In this document: positions 3,338-22,250 of the stretch, in pieces | Numbering within the stretch: the first letter of the stretch is position 1 | Layout of the letters: each line of letters starts with the position of its first letter | Assembly (NCBI GenBank): GCA_913053665.1 | Contig: CAJXGR010000002.1 | Coordinates: forward strand, 1 to 34,942 | DNA length: 34,942 bases | Origin: an uncultured Spirochaetia bacterium | GTDB taxonomy: Bacteria; Spirochaetota; UBA6919 | Direction: 5' to 3' | Translations under genes and position numbers: made by a program | The notes under the pieces: generated by a model | Databases searched by the model: none | Told to the model about the DNA's origin: nothing | What the model saw: the letters and a program-made list of their open reading frames with translations, nothing else

Positions 3338-3523
3338 GTTCTAAAATAAGAATTGCTAATCTAACCTGGCGAAAAATAATATGGAAGCCATCAAAAGTCA
3401 AGTTGAGAATAGCCCTGGGAGCTTCCAACGGTCGTACAAGCCATTATTTTTTATTTAATGACCAAAATAAACTTCATTTTACTATATTATTATAAGACCT
3501 ACCAAGAACATAAGGACAATAGA

Positions 3524-4312
3524 ATGAAGTATAAAATATCTCTACTGATAATACTTGTCTCACTCATGGGATCAGCTCACGCCAAGAAAAAAATACTCGA
3601 TACAAAAAAGTTAAAAAGGGCGAAAATCTACAGAAGCCTGAAAGTTGCCCTCCAAAGGCCTCGTAAGGTTTACAAGCTTTATTTATATGGTCAGGACTTG
3701 AAAAGCCTATCTCCCGAGATCAAGAACCTCAAACGATTACAGATGCTTGACTTAACAGAAAACCGTCTCACAACACTCCCCAAGGAAGTAGCTAAACTCA
3801 AACGATTGCAGTGGTTAAACTTAACTGAAAATAAACTCACCGTTTTACCCAAACAGATCGGCAAACTCAAGAGATTAGAGTGGCTTGGCTTGTCAGAAAA
3901 CCGATTGACCACAGTACCCAAAGGAATCGGTAAACTCAAGAAATTAGAGAGTCTTAATCTCTCAGAAAATCGTATCACCCATCTCCCAAAAAAGATTGGG
4001 AAGCTTAAGAAGCTACTATGGCTTTCTTTATGGGATAATCAACTCACCCGTTTGCCCAAGAAGATTGGGAAGCTTAAAGGCCTAAACTGGCTGCATTTAG
4101 ATAAAAACGAGCTCACTAGAATCCCCAAAACGATAGGGAATCTTAAGAACTTAAAGCACCTTGGACTCTCTGAAAATCGGCTCACCAAGCTCCCCAAGGA
4201 GATCGGAAATCTTCAAAGCTTAAAGACCCTTAATTTATGGGGCAATAATTTCAGTGAAAAGGAAATGAAAAAGATCAGAAAGCTTTTGCCAAAGTGTGAT
4301 ATTAATTTTTAA
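3524..4312 (+). CDS. Secreted leucine-rich repeat (LRR) protein
   Basis: Start at the ATG at 3524 (AAGGA upstream). Signal peptide MKYKISLLIILVSLMGSAHA. About nine 23-residue repeats of the form LxxLPKxIGKLKxLxxLxLxxNxLT. Confidence 0.85.
   Translation: MKYKISLLIILVSLMGSAHAKKKILDTKKLKRAKIYRSLKVALQRPRKVYKLYLYGQDLKSLSPEIKNLKRLQMLDLTENRLTTLPKEVAKLKRLQWLNLTENKLTVLPKQIGKLKRLEWLGLSENRLTTVPKGIGKLKKLESLNLSENRITHLPKKIGKLKKLLWLSLWDNQLTRLPKKIGKLKGLNWLHLDKNELTRIPKTIGNLKNLKHLGLSENRLTKLPKEIGNLQSLKTLNLWGNNFSEKEMKKIRKLLPKCDINF
3674..4255 (+). repeat. 69-nt coding periodicity (LRR units) inside the LRR gene
   Basis: The string aaactcaa(g/a)(a/c)gattaga...ctc/tta...gaaaa(c/t)cg recurs every 69 nt, matching the 23-aa LRR units. 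Confidence 0.8.
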
Positions 4313-10652: not shown

Positions 10653-11984
10653 TTATTTAAATAGGCTGAGTCGATGTTTTTTTAAGATATCAAGCTTTTT
10701 ATAAAGATAATCATTGTCTGGATAAACATCATGGGCCCATCGATCACATTTTCGATAATCATTTGGATGACTTAGGATACAATCATGATAGGATCGCCTA
10801 TTATCCATAAGTTTCTTCCCACCATACACTAAGCCGCCACTTAACCCACTGTAATATCCTGTCATACCAATGACATAGGCAAATAGACCCAACAGGCTGA
10901 AAACTGTAACAAGATGCTTCTTGAATGGGACTCGATGCTTCTCCCATGCAGAGATTATATATAGCCAAATGCCAATATTCAATATGAGTGAAAATGTAAC
11001 ATACCTTGGAGAGGCCGCCTGATAAATCCCATTTTCCAATCTTCCAACCATGACTACAAGCATGATCAGGGCACCCAGTACAATGAGAGGGTTTTCTCTA
11101 TATAAATATATGATTGACTTTAATTTACTTGTTTTGTAGTTCAAGTAAAAACTATAGCTAAACGATGGGATGAGAAATAAAAGGTAGATTAATACAAAGT
11201 ATGGGTTTCTGGTTTGAGCGAAAGCATTTCCTATAAAGCCGCCACAATAGGCGATAGCCTCAAAAGGATTTTTGACAAAGAGAAAGGGATCTAAACCTTG
11301 ATTCCCCATCTTATAATTATATAAATAAGCAACGGTTATAATGATTGATGTGCCAAGTAGGAGATAAAACTTCTTATTGATTTTTTCTTTAAACAATAAT
11401 GACAATAGGAAATAGCCTGTTAGATAAAATCCAATAACCAGGCCCTGTGCGTGAATGAAAGCGGTTATTGTGATAATGACAATGAGTTTGAGCCAATGTT
11501 TATCATGACTTAGAAACTTCCTGAAGTATAAGTCAAAAAGTATCAGAAGAATAACCGTAGAGGACCAGGACATTTGAAAGCTGATTAGAATAGTGTCCCA
11601 ATGAGCGAGACTGAGGAATAGACAGGAAACTCCCAGGAAAAGGAGGACTAGCCAGACAAACGATTTCTTGGCGTATTTCTTTTTGAGTTCCAATAACACT
11701 ATAAACACACTGACAATGAGGAAAAATCCTGGTATGAAGCTTGATAGATAGAAATCCCAATGTGTTAGTCTGGCCCAAACATATACAAACAGCTTTTGCC
11801 AGATAACCCGATGTTCATTATGTTGCTGCCAAAGATAATCCCAACTTAATGACTGGATCCCTGCTGCCAGGTCTGTAAATTGCCACATGTCTGCGTGGGG
11901 AAGATCGAGGGCATTCTGAATAATAAAATAGACTAAATAGATCGTCAAAGCAGACGGTATGCCCCACAAAATGACTTTCTTCAT
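10653..11984 (-). CDS. Polytopic membrane protein (GT-C-like glycosyltransferase or polymerase-like; unassigned)
   Basis: Start chosen at the ATG at 11984, which has a GGGAGGGG RBS (MKKVILWG...). More than 10 hydrophobic segments and a soluble C-terminal tail. Convergent with the preceding gene. Confidence 0.55.
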   Translation of the reverse strand: MKKVILWGIPSALTIYLVYFIIQNALDLPHADMWQFTDLAAGIQSLSWDYLWQQHNEHRVIWQKLFVYVWARLTHWDFYLSSFIPGFFLIVSVFIVLLELKKKYAKKSFVWLVLLFLGVSCLFLSLAHWDTILISFQMSWSSTVILLILFDLYFRKFLSHDKHWLKLIVIITITAFIHAQGLVIGFYLTGYFLLSLLFKEKINKKFYLLLGTSIIITVAYLYNYKMGNQGLDPFLFVKNPFEAIAYCGGFIGNAFAQTRNPYFVLIYLLFLIPSFSYSFYLNYKTSKLKSIIYLYRENPLIVLGALIMLVVMVGRLENGIYQAASPRYVTFSLILNIGIWLYIISAWEKHRVPFKKHLVTVFSLLGLFAYVIGMTGYYSGLSGGLVYGGKKLMDNRRSYHDCILSHPNDYRKCDRWAHDVYPDNDYLYKKLDILKKHRLSLFK

Positions 11985-12081
11985 TATCCCCTCCCTAATA
12001 GTGAGCCCATTCATTTAATAGATAAATAATTTGTCAGCGGTGTATAGGCCATTGAAAATGGTCCCAACAATCTTTTTATTG

Positions 12082-12624
12082 TTATCCTGAAAGGAACACC
12101 TCGTCCAATAAACGCTCTAGGACTGTTTCATTCAGCTTTTTTATCTCACGTCCCATGATGATATTATCGTCTTCCCTGATATAGCCCCATGTGAGGGCCT
12201 TGTCGTCATCCTGATCATGGATTAGAAAGAAATGAGGCTCTTTCATATAGACAATTCTCTTTTCTATAATGGAGTTAAAGGAGTAAACCTTTCGATAAGC
12301 CCTGATGGATACACGCCCCAGGACACCTATGAAATGAATGCCTTCGGGGAGTAATTTCAGTTCACTCTCATTGTCTGACAGAACCAAGGATTCCACCTTC
12401 ATCTTCTCTTCAATGATAGAGTCTCTGGGGTCTTTAGAGATCATGATCTTGTGATACTTACTCTGGATCATTGTCCCGTCAACGATAGCGGTTAATTGTC
12501 TGTAGAGATCACCTAAAGAGTCTTTATATCGCTCCATTAGTATTTCTGGAGGGATCAAAGGCTTTTTTTTCTCTTGGTCACTAACCTTATTTTTAAACGC
12601 CCTATACTTTTGCGACCAGTTCAT
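12082..12624 (-). CDS. Hypothetical cytoplasmic protein (180 aa)
   Basis: Good coding potential. It starts 3 nt after the upstream stop and is the last gene of the folD operon. No family was recognised. Confidence 0.6.
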   Translation of the reverse strand: MNWSQKYRAFKNKVSDQEKKKPLIPPEILMERYKDSLGDLYRQLTAIVDGTMIQSKYHKIMISKDPRDSIIEEKMKVESLVLSDNESELKLLPEGIHFIGVLGRVSIRAYRKVYSFNSIIEKRIVYMKEPHFFLIHDQDDDKALTWGYIREDDNIIMGREIKKLNETVLERLLDEVFLSG

Positions 12625-12626
12625 TA

Positions 12627-13001
12627 TTACTTGATTACCTCTTGACCGAATAGTTTGGCTTCTAAAGCACGCTGCCTCATTTGATGGTCTTCCATAATGG
12701 CGTCCAGCTCATTATAAATCTCTGTGACTGCTTCAATCATCTCTCCCTCATCTTTGCCGACAGCGTTCTGAAGACATCGTTTTATCTTGTTCTTTTGAGT
12801 ATTCAACTTGCCAGAACTTTCTTGAACAAGGTTTCCATAGTCTCGAATATCAAATAAAGGAAGAATCATCTTTCTGAAGCGAACATTATTGATAAACCAC
12901 CTCTTTACGGACTTGGAGGCAAGGAATATAACAATGAATGTTCCCAACATACCAGCTAACAGACTAAAGATAATCTGATACTCCACTAAAATACCTATCA
13001 T
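12627..13001 (-). CDS. Hypothetical membrane-anchored coiled-coil protein (124 aa)
   Basis: ATGA overlap with the folD stop. N-terminal TM (IIFSLLAGMLGTFIVIFLA) followed by a helical, charged C-terminus. Confidence 0.6.
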   Translation of the reverse strand: MIGILVEYQIIFSLLAGMLGTFIVIFLASKSVKRWFINNVRFRKMILPLFDIRDYGNLVQESSGKLNTQKNKIKRCLQNAVGKDEGEMIEAVTEIYNELDAIMEDHQMRQRALEAKLFGQEVIK

Positions 13002-15344: not shown

Positions 15345-15851
15345 CTAGTAGCACCCCTCGTAGACCTCATATTTCCCTGAATTACCGGCCATATGAAGTA
15401 TCTTTTTAATCTTTTTTGAGTTAGCCAAATCTATAGGTGTTTTCCCGTCATTATTCCTGGAGTGGGGATCTGAGCCATGTTTTAATAGGAGTTTTACAAC
15501 TTTTATATATCCTTGTTTGGCTGGCCAATGCAATGGGGTCATACCCTTAAAGTTTTTGGCGTTCACATTGGCTCCATGGTCAATCAGGACCTTGCAAACT
15601 TCCAGATGATTGTAGGCGGCAGCGAAGTGTAGGGCTGTCATTTTACTACTATTTTTGGAATTGACATCCGCTCCCTTTGCCAATAGACTTTTCACTTCTT
15701 GCAATTTGTTCTTTGAGGCGGCATTACGCAGGGATTTGTTTATTTGAGGATTCCCCTTGGTATGGTCTGAGCATTGTACAGCTAAAATGCTGAGAGAAAT
15801 ACATACAGTAATCCACTGTATAAGCCTGCGTTTTTTATAGCGATGAATCAT
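15345..15851 (-). CDS. Ankyrin-repeat protein with N-terminal signal/anchor sequence
   Basis: Start at the ATG at 15851 (MIHRYKKRRLIQWITVCISLSILAV...). Three to four ANK units (TALHFAAAYNHLEVCKVLIDHGANVNAKN, MTPLHWPAKQGYIKVVKLLLKHGSDP). Confidence 0.8.
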   Translation of the reverse strand: MIHRYKKRRLIQWITVCISLSILAVQCSDHTKGNPQINKSLRNAASKNKLQEVKSLLAKGADVNSKNSSKMTALHFAAAYNHLEVCKVLIDHGANVNAKNFKGMTPLHWPAKQGYIKVVKLLLKHGSDPHSRNNDGKTPIDLANSKKIKKILHMAGNSGKYEVYEGCY

Positions 15852-15945
15852 CTTTCTTTGTCTCCTTTTGTATTGAAAGTTAATGGATTCAAGTAAATTA
15901 CGGTGATGTCCTACTAAACTTTTGTTTTGGTTTGTCACTACCAAT

Positions 15946-15987
15946 AAATATACTTATAATTCTTTTCTATCCCAAATTCTTTTTAGG
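15946..15987 (-). repeat. Copy 1 of a perfect 42-bp direct repeat with a promoter-like motif (upstream of the ankyrin gene)
   Basis: aaatatacttataattcttttctatcccaaattctttttagg. The minus strand reads TTGGGA-N17-TATATT. Confidence 0.9.
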
Positions 15988-16005: not shown

Positions 16006-16551
16006 TTAAATCAACTCAGAATAACGGACTGAAAGGTTTGGGAAAACTCTGGATTTCAACGGATCATCAGTCTTAACCAGGTTGTAAGAAACAAACTTTG
16101 ATTTTTCCAGGACAAAAACTTCTATACTCTTTTTCCGTGGGTCCACAAGCCAGTATTCCCTCACACCGAACTTCTCATAGGCTTTAAACTTGAGCCCTCG
16201 ATCCTTCTTTTCGGTTGACTTGGAAAGGATTTCAACAACCAGGTCGGGGGAACCAAATATCCCACGGTCCTGAATGATCTGTTTATTTTCCTTGGAGATA
16301 AAGACAATATCCGGTTGGAAGGTGTTATTTTCATCAAATATTACATCAATAGGAGAAGAAATCATCTGTCCAAGATTATTTTCTTTTAGAAAAACCCATA
16401 GCATACTAGACAGGTTTCCTATAATGATTTGATGTTCAGAACTAGGGGAAGACATTTCAATCAATTCTCCTTCGAGGACTTCGTAGCGTTTCTCATCATT
16501 TAGTCTGTAATATTCTTCATAAGTCCATTTCTTTTGTTTTGTTACAGCCAT
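16006..16551 (-). CDS. Uma2 family endonuclease (DUF820, PD-(D/E)xK-like)
   Basis: WTYEEYYRL...RYEVLEGELIEMSSPSSEHQ...PDIVFISKEN...PDLVVEILSKST...KFKAYEKFGVREYWLVDP is the characteristic Uma2 pattern. ATG at 16551 (GTG at 16560 in the ORF track). Confidence 0.85.
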   Translation of the reverse strand: MAVTKQKKWTYEEYYRLNDEKRYEVLEGELIEMSSPSSEHQIIIGNLSSMLWVFLKENNLGQMISSPIDVIFDENNTFQPDIVFISKENKQIIQDRGIFGSPDLVVEILSKSTEKKDRGLKFKAYEKFGVREYWLVDPRKKSIEVFVLEKSKFVSYNLVKTDDPLKSRVFPNLSVRYSELI

Positions 16552-16580
16552 AACGGTCACCGTCCCATGATCTATAAAGC

Positions 16581-16622
16581 AAATATACTTATAATTCTTT
16601 TCTATCCCAAATTCTTTTTAGG
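16581..16622 (-). repeat. Copy 2 of the perfect 42-bp direct repeat (upstream of the Uma2 gene)
   Basis: Identical to 15946-15987. The flanking bases differ on both sides. Confidence 0.9.
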
Positions 16623-16673
16623 GATAAACGATTTACTTCTTCCAAATTAGACGAACACCTTGTAACGGGATAT

Positions 16674-17876
16674 TTAACGAGATCTCTGATCCCGTGATTT
16701 CCTATGCCGCTGAATGGATTGAGCCACACTCAAGGCGGCTCCTACAGCGATAATAATGTTAATACCTCCCATCAAATAAGCAATGTTATACCGAATAGAT
16801 GCCCATTTCATAAGAAGATCAGGATATATCGCAGTGATTGCCAGAAGAATGGAGGCTGGAAGGGAAATCCGACCTAACACATTAGTAAGATAAACTCTTA
16901 TTGCCTCTCCAGACTTTATTCCAGGTATCATTCTCCCCTCTTTATCCAATAGATCAATGATAGCACGGGGATTATAATAGATAGTTTTATAGGTAAAATT
17001 GCTGATCAAAGTCATTAAAATTGTAAATACTATGAAATAAAAGATAGCCCCAGGGGATAACGCTCTAGCAATACCGATCAGGATGGGATTGTTAAGATTA
17101 AAGATATTGATAAGTTCTGATGGAATAAGAATAAACCAGGAAGCCAGAGAAATGATCAGTATGTCACTGATGGGATGGACTTTGAACGTGATCTTAGACT
17201 GTCCATCACTTTCTCCTACTGGAACATACCTGGCAGAGAGTTGTCTTCCAACTACTAGGCTGACTAGTAGGATAAATGCTAAAAGAATGATAATAGATTT
17301 TAATCGGCTCATATTACCATCATTCAACAGTTCTTTAAATTGAAGGAGTTCACCAGCGAATCCAGCAAAAAGCATAAGTAAAAAACCATTGCCCAAACCC
17401 CTTTTCGTGATCTGATCAGCCAGCCACACCAAAAACAGAGTCCCCGAAGTCATGATTAATATAAAAGTCAGGGTGAATAATATGTTTAAATCGTCTGGGT
17501 GAAAACCGTGTAAAGAACCCATTGGATCATTGATCATATAATTTCTAAAGAGTATCAACGATCCAATAGACTGAATGACACAAATGATAATCGTTCCATA
17601 TCGAAGATAACGATCCATACTGAGATCGTTAAGAACAGAACGTTTGCGTAAGGATGGAATCAGCATTTTTAAGAACCAGAGAACAGCATAAGCACTAATA
17701 TATGGCCAAATACCTAATGAGAAGAGGGAAAACCTGTCAATAAATGATTCAAATACCCCCCATTGGTCAGTATACATTAATATTGCCGGATCAATGCCGG
17801 GTAAAGGAATCCAGATGCCTATACGATAAATAACTAATGCAAACAAAGTAAAAAGAATACGTTTCGCCAGATCCAT
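16674..17876 (-). CDS. Divergent SecY-family protein-conducting channel paralog (400 aa, 10 TM)
   Basis: AAGGAG RBS. SecY-like blocks run along the entire length: KRILFTLFALVIYRIGIWIPLPGID, FSLGIWPYISA, RYGTIIICVIQSIG, LVWLADQITKRGLGNGFLLMLFAG, YNPRAIIDLLDKEGRMIPGIKSGEAIRVYL. Ten hydrophobic segments. There are no flanking rplO, adk, map or infA genes. Confidence 0.8.
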   Translation of the reverse strand: MDLAKRILFTLFALVIYRIGIWIPLPGIDPAILMYTDQWGVFESFIDRFSLFSLGIWPYISAYAVLWFLKMLIPSLRKRSVLNDLSMDRYLRYGTIIICVIQSIGSLILFRNYMINDPMGSLHGFHPDDLNILFTLTFILIMTSGTLFLVWLADQITKRGLGNGFLLMLFAGFAGELLQFKELLNDGNMSRLKSIIILLAFILLVSLVVGRQLSARYVPVGESDGQSKITFKVHPISDILIISLASWFILIPSELINIFNLNNPILIGIARALSPGAIFYFIVFTILMTLISNFTYKTIYYNPRAIIDLLDKEGRMIPGIKSGEAIRVYLTNVLGRISLPASILLAITAIYPDLLMKWASIRYNIAYLMGGINIIIAVGAALSVAQSIQRHRKSRDQRSR

Positions 17877-17886
17877 TCTACACTCC

Positions 17887-18870
17887 TTACAACCACTTCT
17901 CCCGCTGATACCACTCTAAAGTCTCCCGAAAACCCTCTAACAAGTTGTAACGGGGTATCCAGTCTAGTTCTTCACAAATACGGCTTGAGTCACACAGCCA
18001 GGCGTCCTGGAGCATTTCCTTGACCTTCTGTGAGTTGAGGAGAGCCGGCTTCTTAGTGAGCCTGGAGACCCTGTCATTGATCCAGCCTAAGGTTTTAGGG
18101 ATCACAATGGGTAGCTTGACGGTGAGAGCCTTTTTCTGATAAACCTCACTGGCTGTTTGGGTAATGTCAGGCCAGCCATAGATATGGCCGTCCGTGACAA
18201 AATACGTCCTGCCGGATGGAGGCTTTTTTTCGATCACCCTAATGATACTCTCCACAAAGTCATGGACATGGATCATGTTGACTTTCATCGTTCCACTCCC
18301 GATGAGAAGACTCAAGTGATACTTCAACAGTTTAAAGAGCGGGTAGAACTCATGATCCCGTGGGCCGTAAATAGAACAGGGTCTTAAGAGGGTGACGGGA
18401 AAGTCATCCTGATATTGAAGGACTTCTTTTTCAGCTTCCAGTTTGGTGATGCCGTAATCCGTGATGGGGTGACAGGGGGAATCTTCAGTGAGAGGGATAA
18501 AGTCATGGGAAGAACCGACCGCGGCTTGACTAGAAACAAAGATAAAGCGATTGAGTGAACTGTTTCCCTTTGCCTCTCGCAATAAAGAGGAGGTCGGGAG
18601 GACGTTCCCTTTGTGGTAGTCATGATAGTTTAAGGCTTTAGTGACACCGGCACAGTGGACAAGGACATCCACCCCCTGAACCAGCTTACTCACGCTGTAG
18701 GAGTCTTCCCAGTCCACTAATCGGGTCTCAATAGCAGATGAGTCCAGCCACTTGGAAGAACTCTGTCGACGCAGGCTAACGATCACCTCATAGCCTTTCT
18801 GGATAAGCCTTTCAACGAGGTGGCTTCCTACAAAGCCTGTGGCTCCGGTCACTAATACCTTTGGCTTCAT
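17887..18870 (-). CDS. NAD(P)-dependent epimerase/dehydratase family SDR
   Basis: VTGATGFVGSHL, SSQAAVG, YGITKLEAE (YxxxK). 327 aa. Confidence 0.85.
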   Translation of the reverse strand: MKPKVLVTGATGFVGSHLVERLIQKGYEVIVSLRRQSSSKWLDSSAIETRLVDWEDSYSVSKLVQGVDVLVHCAGVTKALNYHDYHKGNVLPTSSLLREAKGNSSLNRFIFVSSQAAVGSSHDFIPLTEDSPCHPITDYGITKLEAEKEVLQYQDDFPVTLLRPCSIYGPRDHEFYPLFKLLKYHLSLLIGSGTMKVNMIHVHDFVESIIRVIEKKPPSGRTYFVTDGHIYGWPDITQTASEVYQKKALTVKLPIVIPKTLGWINDRVSRLTKKPALLNSQKVKEMLQDAWLCDSSRICEELDWIPRYNLLEGFRETLEWYQREKWL

Positions 18871-18886
18871 AGGATTGCTATAAACT

Positions 18887-20215
18887 TTAGAAGCTCAATA
18901 ACTTATGAGCCTGTAGCAATGAGGGCTTGATGTCCACTCCAAAGGGACACACATGTCTGCAAGGCTCAGAGCAGGTTGCACAATAGACAGCCTGATTTTT
19001 CTTTTCCAGAAGGACTTTATAGGAAAGTATGGCTTTCTTTTCCATACCAAAGTTCTCATACTGAGCGCGATAACGTAAAATATCAGGAATCGCTACATTG
19101 AAGATGCAGACAGGGAGGCACACGTCACAAGCTCGGCAGTAGGAGTGTCCCCATTGTTCTGACACGGCTTTCTGATAGGAGCTTAAAACACTGGTATTGC
19201 CTGAACCACCCTTTGCGGCTCCCGCATATCGTTCCAATTCGCTGAAGTTCCGTATAGGGGCTCTCACACTACTAATCTTATCGTTTTCAAGGATCCAGCT
19301 GATGGACGCTTCCCGAAAGCCTTTATCCAAATCTCGTTTGGTTACGTCAAATCCCCCGGCAAAGGGTTCCGAAGCAATGATCCCAATGTTTTTTTCTTTC
19401 GCTTTATCAAACAAATCGGAGTATTGAAAGAATCGGGACTCATAGCGATCGTTCTGTCTGACGTAGTTGTAGTATAGCATGAGGACGTCAAACTTGCCCC
19501 CGTCAATGGCTTTCTTCACCACTTCCTTCATGTCCCCGTTATAACTGGTCAGGCCAAGATGTTTCACCATTCCCTTTTCTTTAGCCTTCTCAAAGGCTGA
19601 GTGGAGCATAGGGTTTGTGACCCGATGGATTCCTCCCACCCCGTGTATGTAGAGAATATCCACATAATCCGTCTGAAGTCGTTTGAGACTCTTCTCGATG
19701 GAGGCCAGCATCTTCTCTTCCGTCCCTCCATAGGTCGGATCTTCGTCCTCAATGGGTAACTTGGTGGATATGATGAGGTTTTCCCGAGAACTTTTGTTCT
19801 TTTTCAGGTACTCACCAATCAGTTCTTCACTTTGACCCGCATAATACTTGGGTGCTGTATCGATACAGTTGATACCCATGTCAATCGCGGCCTCAAGGAC
19901 TTTCTTGTCGGTGATCAGGTGAGCACCAAAGGTCAGGGCAGATATTTCACCCACCTTCCCCAATTTTCTGGGGGCCAAGCCTGCTGATGAGCTTTCATCA
20001 TTACTCGAATCGTCGTCGTCATCACCCTCATCATCATCATCGTCACCTTCGTCATCCTGGGCTCTTAGGGTATTAGCCGCTATAAAGGGCAGGATGCCGC
20101 CAATCGTTGCGAGGGACGCTTTCTTGATAAAGTCCCTTCGGGGCAGTTCTTTTTTAGTTAATTCCTCTTCCAAATTGCTTTTTTTATCTTCGTTTTGTAC
20201 TTTTCCCTCTTCCAT
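18887..20215 (-). CDS. Tat-signal aldo/keto reductase with a C-terminal Cys-rich 4Fe-4S-type domain
   Basis: AGGAGG RBS. Twin-arginine motif PRRDFIKKASLATIGG, a poly-acidic linker, an AKR core (CIDTAPKYYAGQSEELIGEYL, YVDILYIHG), and C-terminal CRACDVCLPVC ... CATCSEPCRHVCP. Confidence 0.8.
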   Translation of the reverse strand: MEEGKVQNEDKKSNLEEELTKKELPRRDFIKKASLATIGGILPFIAANTLRAQDDEGDDDDDEGDDDDDSSNDESSSAGLAPRKLGKVGEISALTFGAHLITDKKVLEAAIDMGINCIDTAPKYYAGQSEELIGEYLKKNKSSRENLIISTKLPIEDEDPTYGGTEEKMLASIEKSLKRLQTDYVDILYIHGVGGIHRVTNPMLHSAFEKAKEKGMVKHLGLTSYNGDMKEVVKKAIDGGKFDVLMLYYNYVRQNDRYESRFFQYSDLFDKAKEKNIGIIASEPFAGGFDVTKRDLDKGFREASISWILENDKISSVRAPIRNFSELERYAGAAKGGSGNTSVLSSYQKAVSEQWGHSYCRACDVCLPVCIFNVAIPDILRYRAQYENFGMEKKAILSYKVLLEKKNQAVYCATCSEPCRHVCPFGVDIKPSLLQAHKLLSF

Positions 20216-20284: not shown

Positions 20285-22021
20285 CTAATAATGAATATAA
20301 AATGGCATCAAAGTGGCCACTCTTTCCTTTGAAAAGATCCTCTGAATGTACTTCAGGTAAATAATGAGTGGTTTCGCAAAGATTTGCATGCTTTCAATTT
20401 CTCTCTCTAGCTGTTGTTTCATAAAGAGATTAGAACTTAATAATTCCATAAAGCTCTTCTGTTCAGGATAGGTGACAATCTCCAGCTTATTATTAAAGTC
20501 TCGTACTTTTTTACGTGCCAAGCGGATAGCAAAGTCGATCCCACCTAATTGATCCACCAGACCAACCTTCAGGGCTTGAGTGCCGGTGTAGATCTTGCCC
20601 TGGGCGTGGACGTTCATTTTCTTGATCGTCATCTTTCGCCCTTGAGCGGCTTTTCGGACAAAAGTTTTATAGGTTTCAAGCATTTGCTTGGCGATCAATT
20701 TGTTTTCTTCAGGCGTAAAATTGCGATAATCCGTGAATAGGTCGGCGTATTTGCCTCTTTTGAAGATTTCTTTATTGAGCCCAACCTTGTTATAGAGGCC
20801 CTTTAAGTTGAACTTCCCTCCAACAACACCAATGGAGCCTGTGATAGTGGTCGAATTAGCAATAATAGTGGGACAAGCCATAGCAATATAATACCCTCCC
20901 GAGGCCGCCACATCCGAAAGACTGGCAATCACAGGTTTAGCCTGACTCAATAGACGCACCTCTCGCCAAAGTATGTCTGAAGCAAGGGCAGATCCTCCAG
21001 GGCTATTAATCCTTATGACAACAGCCTTTACCTTGGGATCTTTTCTCACCTGCCTTAAGATAGCTGTAAAGTCATCGCTTCCAATGGCATTGCTCCCACC
21101 GAAAAGGCTTCTTTTGCTTTTCCCTGATATAATCGTCCCTTCCATATAGATAATAGCAATCTTGGGGGCGTTACTCTTTTTAGGAGGCTTCTTGTAGAGC
21201 ATCATGAGGAGTTCCATACTACTGGGTTTTCTGGCTCGACCGGATCTCTTGTTGTTTTGGTAACTGGCAAGAACCCCTCCATTTTTTTGGACTATCTCCT
21301 CAAACTTGTCCTCATAGAGGAATCCGTCTATCAATTTGGCTTTCTTAGCCTCTGCAGCACTGAAAAAACCACGATCCACAAGTTTTAAGACCCTCCCTTT
21401 AGAGATTTTCCTACCCTCAGCAATAATACTCACAAACTCATCAAATAACCCATCTAATAGGAAGTTAATGGACTCCTTCTGGTATTTGGAGGCCCTGGAA
21501 CGAGTGTATATTTCACTGGCTGATTTATAATTACCCATTTGGTGGAAGTTGGGAGAGACTCCCAGCATATTAAAGGTATTTTTGAGAAAGACAAGCTCCA
21601 AGGCAATTCCACTTAGATCCACTCCCCCTTGAGGGGATACATAAAGGCGATTGGCAACAGAGGCTAATAGATAGTCTGTTTTGGAGAAGGTTTCGCTAAA
21701 GGCGTATATAGTTTTACCTTGATTCTTAAAGGCCTTCAAAGCCTCCCTTAGCTCTTGAAGCTTAGCCAGACCCAGTCGAGGGGATTTAATTTTAAGGACA
21801 ATACCTTTGACCGACGCGTCTCTTTTGGCTCTGTTGATAATGGTTAAGAGGGCCCTTAGGCTGTTGTTTTTTGCACCCATAAAGCTAGAGACACGGATGT
21901 CGTCTTGAATGAGGCCTTCAACGGTGATGGGAAGGAACTTCGCATTATTGGCCCTTAAAAAGCTGGACAAAAGGGTTAATGAAAGAATGAAAGACATGAG
22001 GAACAATTTCTTATAGATCAC
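20285..22021 (-). CDS. sppA: Signal peptide peptidase SppA, 67K two-domain type (S49)
   Basis: Signal/anchor peptide and two S49 halves, with INSPGGSALASD and DVAASGGYYIAMA motifs in the second half. 578 aa. GTG start with an AGGA RBS. Confidence 0.85.
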   Translation of the reverse strand: MIYKKLFLMSFILSLTLLSSFLRANNAKFLPITVEGLIQDDIRVSSFMGAKNNSLRALLTIINRAKRDASVKGIVLKIKSPRLGLAKLQELREALKAFKNQGKTIYAFSETFSKTDYLLASVANRLYVSPQGGVDLSGIALELVFLKNTFNMLGVSPNFHQMGNYKSASEIYTRSRASKYQKESINFLLDGLFDEFVSIIAEGRKISKGRVLKLVDRGFFSAAEAKKAKLIDGFLYEDKFEEIVQKNGGVLASYQNNKRSGRARKPSSMELLMMLYKKPPKKSNAPKIAIIYMEGTIISGKSKRSLFGGSNAIGSDDFTAILRQVRKDPKVKAVVIRINSPGGSALASDILWREVRLLSQAKPVIASLSDVAASGGYYIAMACPTIIANSTTITGSIGVVGGKFNLKGLYNKVGLNKEIFKRGKYADLFTDYRNFTPEENKLIAKQMLETYKTFVRKAAQGRKMTIKKMNVHAQGKIYTGTQALKVGLVDQLGGIDFAIRLARKKVRDFNNKLEIVTYPEQKSFMELLSSNLFMKQQLEREIESMQIFAKPLIIYLKYIQRIFSKERVATLMPFYIHY

Positions 22022-22250
22022 TGAGCCATCCTATACGTAGACTTTCAAGAAGATGTAAATTACCAGCATTAAGAATGTATTATGAAAGGTAAAGAATGTC
22101 AAGCACATATCCTTGATTTTAAGTTAAAATAGACAGAAATCCACCCAAGGTCAAGTGAAAATAACGAAAAAAATAAATGAACGTTTCACCCCAAATGATT
22201 CTAACCCAGTAATATTGGAATGAACATAAATGCCCACTGATTCAAAGACC

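Follow-up and report, generated by a model that had tools for sequence, protein, structure and literature searches.

A divergent second SecY lacking the canonical docking arginines in an uncultured Spirochaetota lineage

Introduction

The protein-conducting channel SecY is universal and essential, and its gene is normally present in a single copy. To our knowledge, the only second SecY copies that have been studied in bacteria belong to the Gram-positive SecA2/SecY2 system, in which a divergent SecY coexists with the housekeeping one and works with SecA2, Asp1-5, and Gtf proteins. Here we describe a 400-aa SecY paralog, named SecY', which is encoded in a 34,942-nt stretch of DNA from an uncultured Spirochaetia bacterium (contig CAJXGR010000002.1, assembly GCA_913053665.1; this whole stretch is referred to as the window). 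In the searchable library, no publication turned up on SecY paralogs of spirochaetes or of any other diderm, including the group of short SecYs described below, and a preprint on SecA2/SecY2 systems did not mention spirochaetes.

Two cytoplasmic loops are central to the comparison with housekeeping SecY. Residues R255 and R256 of loop C4 and R357 of loop C5 have been described as universal sites at which the ribosome, FtsY, and SecA dock, and charge reversal at these positions is reported to abolish ribosome binding (PMC3575545). Throughout, SecY sites are numbered as in E. coli, whose SecY was taken from NC_000913 as the reference for alignments. The reading that we favor, with moderate confidence, is that SecY' is an in-lineage duplicate of secY that serves as an accessory channel without canonical docking of ribosomes, FtsY, or SecA.

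Two secY Copies in Sibling Genomes

A word-indexed search of 5.8 billion proteins returned three close relatives of the window protein, P0002 (73% identical), P0003 (66%), and P0004 (63%), with the next match at 37%. These four proteins constitute the SecY' clade; they are 391-402 aa long and all are intact. The loci with orthologs outside the window are designated L001, L003, and L006. In the metagenome-assembled genome (MAG) GCA_054033435.1, the ortholog P0003 lies among the same neighbors as in the window, namely SppA, an aldo-keto reductase, an epimerase, SecY' itself, and a Uma2-family protein. The same MAG encodes P0005, a 460-aa SecY located between L15 and infA in a complete S10-spc-alpha ribosomal cluster, and this protein is the 37% match. 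Similarly, MAG GCA_054033495.1, the source of L003, contains the ortholog P0002 together with P0121, a 458-aa SecY encoded in the spc operon. P0005 and P0121 are hereafter treated as the housekeeping SecYs of the host lineage. The contigs carrying both genes in the two MAGs span 13-67 kb and all have 40-42% G+C.

Because two sibling MAGs hold a SecY' ortholog as well as a spc-operon secY, SecY' is supported as a true paralog rather than the sole secY; for the window's own genome, this conclusion is carried over from the two siblings. The first-pass annotation of the window, made from the sequence alone, had proposed a paralog and had noted the absence of rplO, adk, map, and infA from its flanks. 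Both points hold: a canonical secY was found in the spc operon of each relative that could be checked, the genes around SecY' encode SppA, an aldo-keto reductase, an epimerase, and Uma2, and this arrangement recurs at the P0003 locus. The clade is narrow. Clade-specific peptide patterns, run on the GTDB species-representative genomes, retrieved no further member and matched only ordinary SecY, staphylococcal SecY2, and alphaproteobacterial short SecYs, and a scan of Joint Genome Institute metagenome contigs likewise returned ordinary SecYs only (26-34% identical). Among about 15 billion proteins (1.84 billion representatives), the SecY' clade forms one cluster with four known members.

Family Membership and Predicted Fold

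SecY' matches the Pfam SecY model PF00344 with 165.6 bits (cutoff 32.2) over residues 50-383, covering model positions 1-304 of 306. With TIGR00967, the equivalog model for housekeeping SecY, it scores 183.3 bits over model positions 2-410 of 414, under the cutoff of 253.6. Scores with the SecY2 models are far under their cutoffs (TIGR02920, 77.6 bits against 249.6; NF009082, 85.8 bits against 353). On these scores, SecY' is a member of the SecY family that falls outside both typical housekeeping SecY and Gram-positive SecY2. In the Protein Data Bank, 16 distinct SecY sequences match it with E-values of 1e-48 to 1e-30.

An AlphaFold2 model of SecY', built on a 63-sequence alignment, reached a mean predicted local distance difference test (pLDDT) score of 85.6 and a predicted template modeling (pTM) score of 0.83. 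Its top Foldseek matches were all SecY or Sec61, with TM-scores of 0.82-0.85 to the bacterial SecY of G. thermodenitrificans. The full-length profile matches and the confident SecY-fold model agree with the colinearity over ten transmembrane segments (TMs) that had been noticed at first pass, and both identify the protein as SecY-like. When normalized to the target, TM-scores of the model were 0.80-0.84 against SecA-bound, open SecY structures and 0.69-0.70 against resting ones. A control model of the host-lineage SecY leaned the same way more weakly (0.86-0.88 open, 0.83-0.84 resting), and the preference of the SecY' model for open-state structures is at best a weak hint about the state of the channel.

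Retained Channel Core and Lost Docking Surfaces

In alignments with E. coli SecY, SecY' keeps TM1-TM10 in order, along with the lateral-gate helices and the motifs GIxPYISA (TM2b), GxGNG (TM5), and GG (TM10). Pore-ring positions 82, 86, 187, 191, and 408 are still hydrophobic in the paralogs (I/V, I, F/V, L, and I/V, respectively), and the position of I278 is occupied by Ser or Thr, making one of the six ring positions polar.

The first-pass annotation had described a protein about 40 aa shorter than housekeeping SecY, with a trimmed segment before the plug and TM2, a short non-basic TM6-TM7 loop, and GIKSG in place of GIRPG in the C5 loop, and each of these features is borne out by alignment. 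At 400 aa, SecY' falls short of E. coli SecY by 43 residues and of the host-lineage SecY by 60. The N-terminal 11-16 aa, corresponding to the N-terminal helix, are absent, the C-terminal tail is shorter by about 11 residues, and loop C2 is shorter by three. The segment before TM2, which contains the plug, has lost 10-16 aa, and about half of the plug region is gone; about 10 residues matching E. coli 57-66 are missing, and FESF takes the place of GGAL. In the model, confidence is low at residues 39-43, and a lone four-residue helix (45-48) stands where the host SecY has helices at 59-66 and 70-73. On this model, the plug helix of SecY' would be at most a remnant.

Other changes concern the docking loops. 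Loop C4 is 10 aa shorter, with the equivalents of K250, R251, R255, and R256 deleted, and its net charge is 0 to +2, depending on where the boundaries are drawn, compared to +5 to +8 in housekeeping SecY. In the model, it forms a short hairpin with strands at 215-221 and 226-232. In loop C5, the equivalent of R357 is Lys in the window protein and Asn, Ser, or Ala in the orthologs, and P358 is replaced by Ser. Position 357 is an Arg column conserved in at least 90% of 59 housekeeping SecYs; in the paralogs it is unconstrained. All three docking arginines, R255, R256, and R357, are missing or unconstrained in the SecY' clade. Further changes include P276 to Ile and S282 to Trp or Leu, both in TM7, and M83 to Trp. 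Across the 86 columns with at least 90% conservation in the same 59 proteins, the paralogs keep 40, are fixed for a different residue at 20, and vary at the remaining 26.

Translation Signals and Rate of Change

The SecY' open reading frame (ORF) cannot be extended upstream, its ATG being the first start codon after a stop. As annotated at first pass, it is preceded by a strong AAGGAG ribosome-binding site (RBS). This site overlaps the TAA stop of the epimerase gene (17887-17889), and both the motif and the overlap recur at each of the four known loci (the window, L001, L003, and L006). The overlap suggests that translation of SecY' is coupled to that of the epimerase.

Pairwise ratios of non-synonymous to synonymous substitution rates (dN/dS) among the four orthologs range from 0.22 to 0.29, at dS values of 0.59-0.95. 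By this measure, SecY' is under purifying selection. It also evolves faster than the genes around it and, judged on one genome pair, faster than housekeeping secY. Between the window and L001, dN was 0.207 for SecY' and 0.024-0.043 for three neighboring genes, a difference of about 5-9-fold. Between the two MAGs that carry both copies, the housekeeping SecYs are 87% identical (dN 0.093, dN/dS 0.095), while the SecY' proteins are 68.5% identical (dN 0.195, dN/dS 0.29). The 20 columns that have been fixed identically to a new state in the four paralogs argue for a new constraint rather than decay.

Origin of the Second Copy

The 1.84 billion representatives were searched with HMMER, using a profile built from the four paralogs. 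This profile scored 757 bits to its own representative and 326 bits to P0125, the representative of the host-lineage housekeeping SecY cluster (72% identical to P0005); no other protein exceeded 213 bits. BLASTP gave a similar order, with the paralogs scoring 247-275 bits against nine host-lineage SecYs, 179-230 bits against other SecYs from match lists dominated by Spirochaetota, and 128 bits against E. coli SecY. SecY' and its putative parent, the host-lineage SecY, are 37-42% identical. A six-residue insertion after TM3 is common to the paralogs and the host-lineage SecYs and is not found in E. coli SecY, P0010, or P0014. In a neighbor-joining tree without SecY2, the paralogs join the host-lineage SecY group with 83% bootstrap support. 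When staphylococcal SecY2 was included, the paralogs and SecY2 joined in 53% of bootstraps, a grouping that we rejected as long-branch attraction, since the profile and BLAST scores favor the host lineage by more than 100 bits. Since the housekeeping SecY of the host lineage is much closer to SecY' than any other protein outside the clade, the evidence points to a lineage-specific duplication of that gene rather than to an imported SecY2.

The duplicate appears to have been added to an operon that already existed. More distant relatives have this operon without SecY': L112 carries SppA, the aldo-keto reductase, and the epimerase followed by opposite-strand genes, and L110 and L111 carry SppA and the epimerase followed by an opposite-strand ParA-like gene. 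The sample that yielded L112 also contains a housekeeping SecY 76% identical to P0005. The epimerase C-terminus, ending in WYQxEKWL, is ancestral. Comparison of these loci indicates that the sppA-(aldo-keto reductase)-epimerase operon came first and that SecY' was added at its 3′ end. A pair of 20-nt repeats, one directly after the SecY' stop and the other inside the 3′ end of the epimerase gene, is probably a relic of the duplication or insertion that brought secY' to its position behind the epimerase; the two copies agree at 17 of 20 positions, and none of 500 shuffles reached their alignment score. The association with sppA is secondary. It may supply a promoter, as no minus-strand terminator-like site was found between sppA and SecY', and promoter-like sites lie upstream of sppA at about 22074-22154.

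Possible Functions of SecY'

In the mechanism that we propose, a copy of the housekeeping secY landed at the 3′ end of the sppA operon and has been retained intact under purifying selection, translationally coupled to the epimerase. Its product, probably together with the SecE and SecG that the cell ordinarily uses, would form an accessory membrane channel that ribosomes, FtsY, and SecA do not engage through their canonical contacts. If they do not, SecY' may serve a restricted or condition-specific task, handling its substrates after translation by analogy with SecY2, of which it would be a functional analog arrived at independently. Several observations weigh against this proposal. All four members of the clade come from metagenome-assembled or uncultured genomes, and the co-occurrence of two copies depends on binning, although a single organism would fit both the phylogeny and the G+C content shared by all contigs (40-42%). 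The dN/dS of SecY' is three times that of the housekeeping copy and could reflect relaxed constraint. The association with the operon is not ancient, and its genes tell little about the substrates of SecY'; nor is a dedicated partner (SecA2, Asp-like, or SecE/G-like) encoded nearby. Lastly, I278 has become Ser or Thr, the conserved proline of TM7 is lost, and only 40 of the 86 near-invariant columns are kept in all four paralogs. Given these changes, SecY' may no longer translocate polypeptides at all.

SecY' might instead have taken on a non-translocation role, by titrating SecE and SecG, by modulating the main translocon or SppA, or by acting as a decoy for toxins or phage factors that exploit SecY. 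This main rival is unlikely in our view, but it draws on several of the same observations: the three universal docking arginines are gone, 46 of the 86 near-invariant columns are changed or variable, and a dN about 5-9 times that of the neighbors and twice that of housekeeping SecY would fit an arms race or a new set of constraints. In addition, SecY' adjoins a copy-number-variable Uma2 cassette that matches a phage-defense candidate, and SecY is known to be used for the import of contact-dependent inhibition (CDI) toxins (PMC7858069). Against this rival, the channel core and the lateral-gate helices are retained, five of the six pore-ring positions are still hydrophobic, and the model predicts a confident and complete SecY fold; moreover, SecY' itself has no PADLOC match or positive link to toxins or phage. 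That SecY' is a functionless duplicate decaying into a pseudogene is improbable. Such decay would explain a dN/dS above that of the parent gene, the loss of residues essential for normal SecY function, and the confinement of the clade to four sequences among about 15 billion proteins. However, all four orthologs are intact and full length at dS 0.6-0.95 with dN/dS of 0.22-0.29, the RBS is conserved, and 20 changed positions are fixed identically in four of four orthologs, which would reflect new constraint rather than drift. SecY' also survived a rearrangement that destroyed the epimerase at L003, where a transposase-like ORF (an insertion sequence-like fragment) at the contig end precedes an epimerase cut to its C-terminal ~145 aa (L003:1-740) and SecY' and its RBS remain intact.

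Two further explanations concern where the gene came from, and we give very little credence to either. Horizontal acquisition of a Gram-positive SecY2 is suggested by the similar changes in the two proteins (a short uncharged C4, replacement of R357, and short tails) and by the tree that joined both long branches in 53% of bootstraps. The data contradict this origin, though: the join is best read as an artifact of branch length, and the SecY2 profiles, with cutoffs of 250-353 bits, gave 78-86 bits, compared to 183 bits for the SecY model. In similarity to SecY', no other relative comes close to the host-lineage SecY, and the G+C content of the gene matches its flanks. No SecA, Asp, or Gtf homolog occurs among the window ORFs of at least 100 aa, in line with the absence of SecA2, Asp, and Gtf partners noted at first pass, and no SecA2, Asp, or Gtf gene was found in the flanks of L001 and L003. 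Equally hard to sustain is the idea that SecY' is a relocated sole housekeeping secY, or that the second copy is a binning artifact. The evidence for two copies does come from MAGs related to the window's genome. Yet two independent MAGs hold both genes on contigs of 13-67 kb with matching G+C, the nearest relative of SecY' is precisely the canonical SecY of that lineage, and a sole SecY that lacks R255, R256, and R357 and falls under the equivalog cutoff would be unprecedented.

Comparison With Other Divergent SecYs

Compared to housekeeping SecY, as represented by TIGR00967, E. coli SecY, P0005, and P0121, SecY' has the same fold, ten-TM order, and motifs, and hydrophobic residues at five of six pore-ring positions. 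It differs in lying outside the spc operon, in its shorter plug region and termini, in the deletion of the C4 tip, and in a position 357 that is not conserved. Staphylococcal SecY2 shares this class of change, with a C4 loop four residues shorter and a net charge of 0-1, replacement of R357 by Gln, Lys, or Tyr, and shortening of the C2 and C6 regions of the same kind as in SecY'. Gram-positive SecY2 is likewise a second, divergent SecY that coexists with a housekeeping copy, and it is the best functional analogy for SecY' as a specialized channel. However, none of its partner proteins is encoded near SecY', whose host is a diderm, and the sequence comparisons support an origin of SecY' from a spirochaete SecY, independent of SecY2.

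A second parallel was found in diderms. SecYs of 400-420 aa are encoded outside the spc operon at L014:632-1849, L015:7081-8319, and L113:1307-2509 (P0313), and the group further includes P0324, P0334, P0347, and P0268. L014 and L015 are alphaproteobacterial MAG contigs; P0313 lies on soil metagenome contigs, directly downstream of lipB on three of them, and L014 has a similar upstream gene. Like SecY', these proteins have truncated N- and C-termini, Ala or Glu in place of R357, and VWLADQIT replacing MWLGEQIT, and some also have a shortened C4 loop. In contrast to SecY', most keep a fuller plug-region length, and their neighbors (lipB) differ. They are 25-31% identical to SecY' and 38-43% identical to E. 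coli SecY, and this greater closeness to proteobacterial SecY indicates a separate origin. They look like an independent and apparently undescribed paralog family, their paralogy resting on length and genomic context. The view taken at first pass, that second SecYs are established only in Gram-positive bacteria, therefore needs revision, given short SecYs without R357 outside the spc operon on alphaproteobacterial MAG and soil contigs.

In at least three independent cases, a second SecY seems to have lost its docking arginines. One may speculate, tentatively and with more doubt than conviction, that such paralogs (Firmicutes SecY2, the alphaproteobacterial lipB-linked group, and this Spirochaetota lineage) arose repeatedly as a general, unrecognized class of accessory channel. 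If so, the diderm members would work without a dedicated SecA2, perhaps with another partner; alternatively, they might conduct passively or in reverse, or have a regulatory or protective effect on the main translocon. SecY' would then be the youngest member of the class, with a parent gene that can still be identified.

SecY' is a recent, independently derived second SecY in a diderm, and because its parent is recognizable, the steps of its divergence can be read: the C4 tip and R357 were lost, the plug region was trimmed, and both termini were truncated. The recurrence of these steps in SecY2 and in the alphaproteobacterial group suggests that evolution can repeatedly take the same route in uncoupling a translocon from ribosomes and SecA. 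If SecY' works as a channel, it would offer a natural minimal test case for the roles of the docking loops and the plug, and for alternative ways of powering or gating a channel. If it does not translocate, it would represent a new use of the SecY fold. As an accessory SecY variant, it is known so far from four sequences in one narrow uncultured lineage.

Genomic Neighborhood

The features of the locus are listed in Table 1. The window, L001, and L006 each have an intact epimerase-SecY' pair. The aldo-keto reductase gene is kept in L001 and in L112, the relative with an empty site.

TABLE 1. Coordinates of secY' and associated features in the window.
Feature	Position	Strand	Basis
Uma2-family nuclease, downstream of SecY', not part of the channel	16006..16560	minus	profile match
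20-nt repeat directly after the SecY' stop	16654..16673		17/20 identical to partner copy
secY paralog (SecY') gene, intact, 400 aa, ATG start	16674..17876	minus	ORF call, profiles, predicted fold
C5 loop, GIKSG replacing GIRPG, residues 319-323	16908..16922	minus	alignments
C4 (TM6-TM7) hairpin, residues 217-231, tip GESDGQ	17184..17228	minus	alignment, model
Shortened P1 loop and plug (TM2a) region, residues 34-48	17733..17777	minus	alignments, model
AAGGAG ribosome-binding site, 6 nt 5′ of the SecY' ATG	17883..17888	minus	sequence
NAD-dependent epimerase/dehydratase (short-chain dehydrogenase/reductase), directly upstream of SecY'	17887..18870	minus	profile match
Partner 20-nt repeat inside the epimerase 3′ end, codons IPRYNLL	17939..17958		repeat comparison
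Aldo-keto reductase, twin-arginine-like N-terminus RRDFIKK, weak C-terminal Fe-S motif	18887..20215	minus	profile match
SppA signal-peptide peptidase (S49), first gene of the putative operon	20285..22021	minus	profile match

Several readings that the neighborhood might invite were set aside. The operon genes were rejected as a clue to the substrates of SecY', as relatives carry the operon without it. The aldo-keto reductase is an unlikely substrate because it carries a signal of the twin-arginine (Tat) type. A defense-system reading found no PADLOC match for SecY', the matches being limited to the nearby Uma2, ankyrin, and methyltransferase genes. A foreign island was discounted as well, since neither G+C content nor skew shows an anomaly and the G+C content matches that of the flanks. 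Scans of the window with Rfam and for tRNAs found nothing.

The aldo-keto reductase has an architecture that is unusual for such an enzyme, combining its twin-arginine-type N-terminus (PRRDFIKKASLATIGG) with an acidic low-complexity stretch (DDEGDDDDDEGDDDDD) and a Cys-rich C-terminus that weakly matches a 4Fe-4S dicluster domain; it is apparently exported. Uma2 follows SecY' in every locus with known downstream sequence and matches the PADLOC phage-defense candidate PDC-S03 (E-value 3e-46). In the window it is bracketed by an exact 42-nt direct repeat (15946-15987 and 16581-16622) containing a promoter-like TTGGGA-17-TATATT, and a leader with this repeat also precedes the ankyrin gene. There are three Uma2 copies in tandem in L001 and one each in the window and L003, which suggests that the cassette expands and contracts by recombination.

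Elsewhere in the window, three minus-strand ORFs (10653-12014, 12082-12624, and 12627-13001; 453, 180, and 124 aa) lie between a PMT_2-type glycosyltransferase gene and folD and have no Pfam or PADLOC match. The named relatives are "Spirochaetota bacterium" MAGs, and the window encodes an FtsX/MacB-type permease, an ABC ATPase, and a SurA-N-like protein, in keeping with the diderm host assumed at first pass. Two eukaryote-like repeat proteins are also encoded: an ankyrin-repeat protein (15345-15944, minus strand) with a hydrophobic N-terminus, possibly a lipoprotein signal, and a match to PADLOC PDC-M72A (E-value 2e-26), and a leucine-rich-repeat protein (3458-4312, plus strand). Ankyrin and leucine-rich-repeat proteins are common in Leptospira-like bacteria. 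In our own reading, a host from a Leptospira-like group is suggested by the leucine-rich-repeat, PilZ, DUF1577, and Bat proteins of the flanks.

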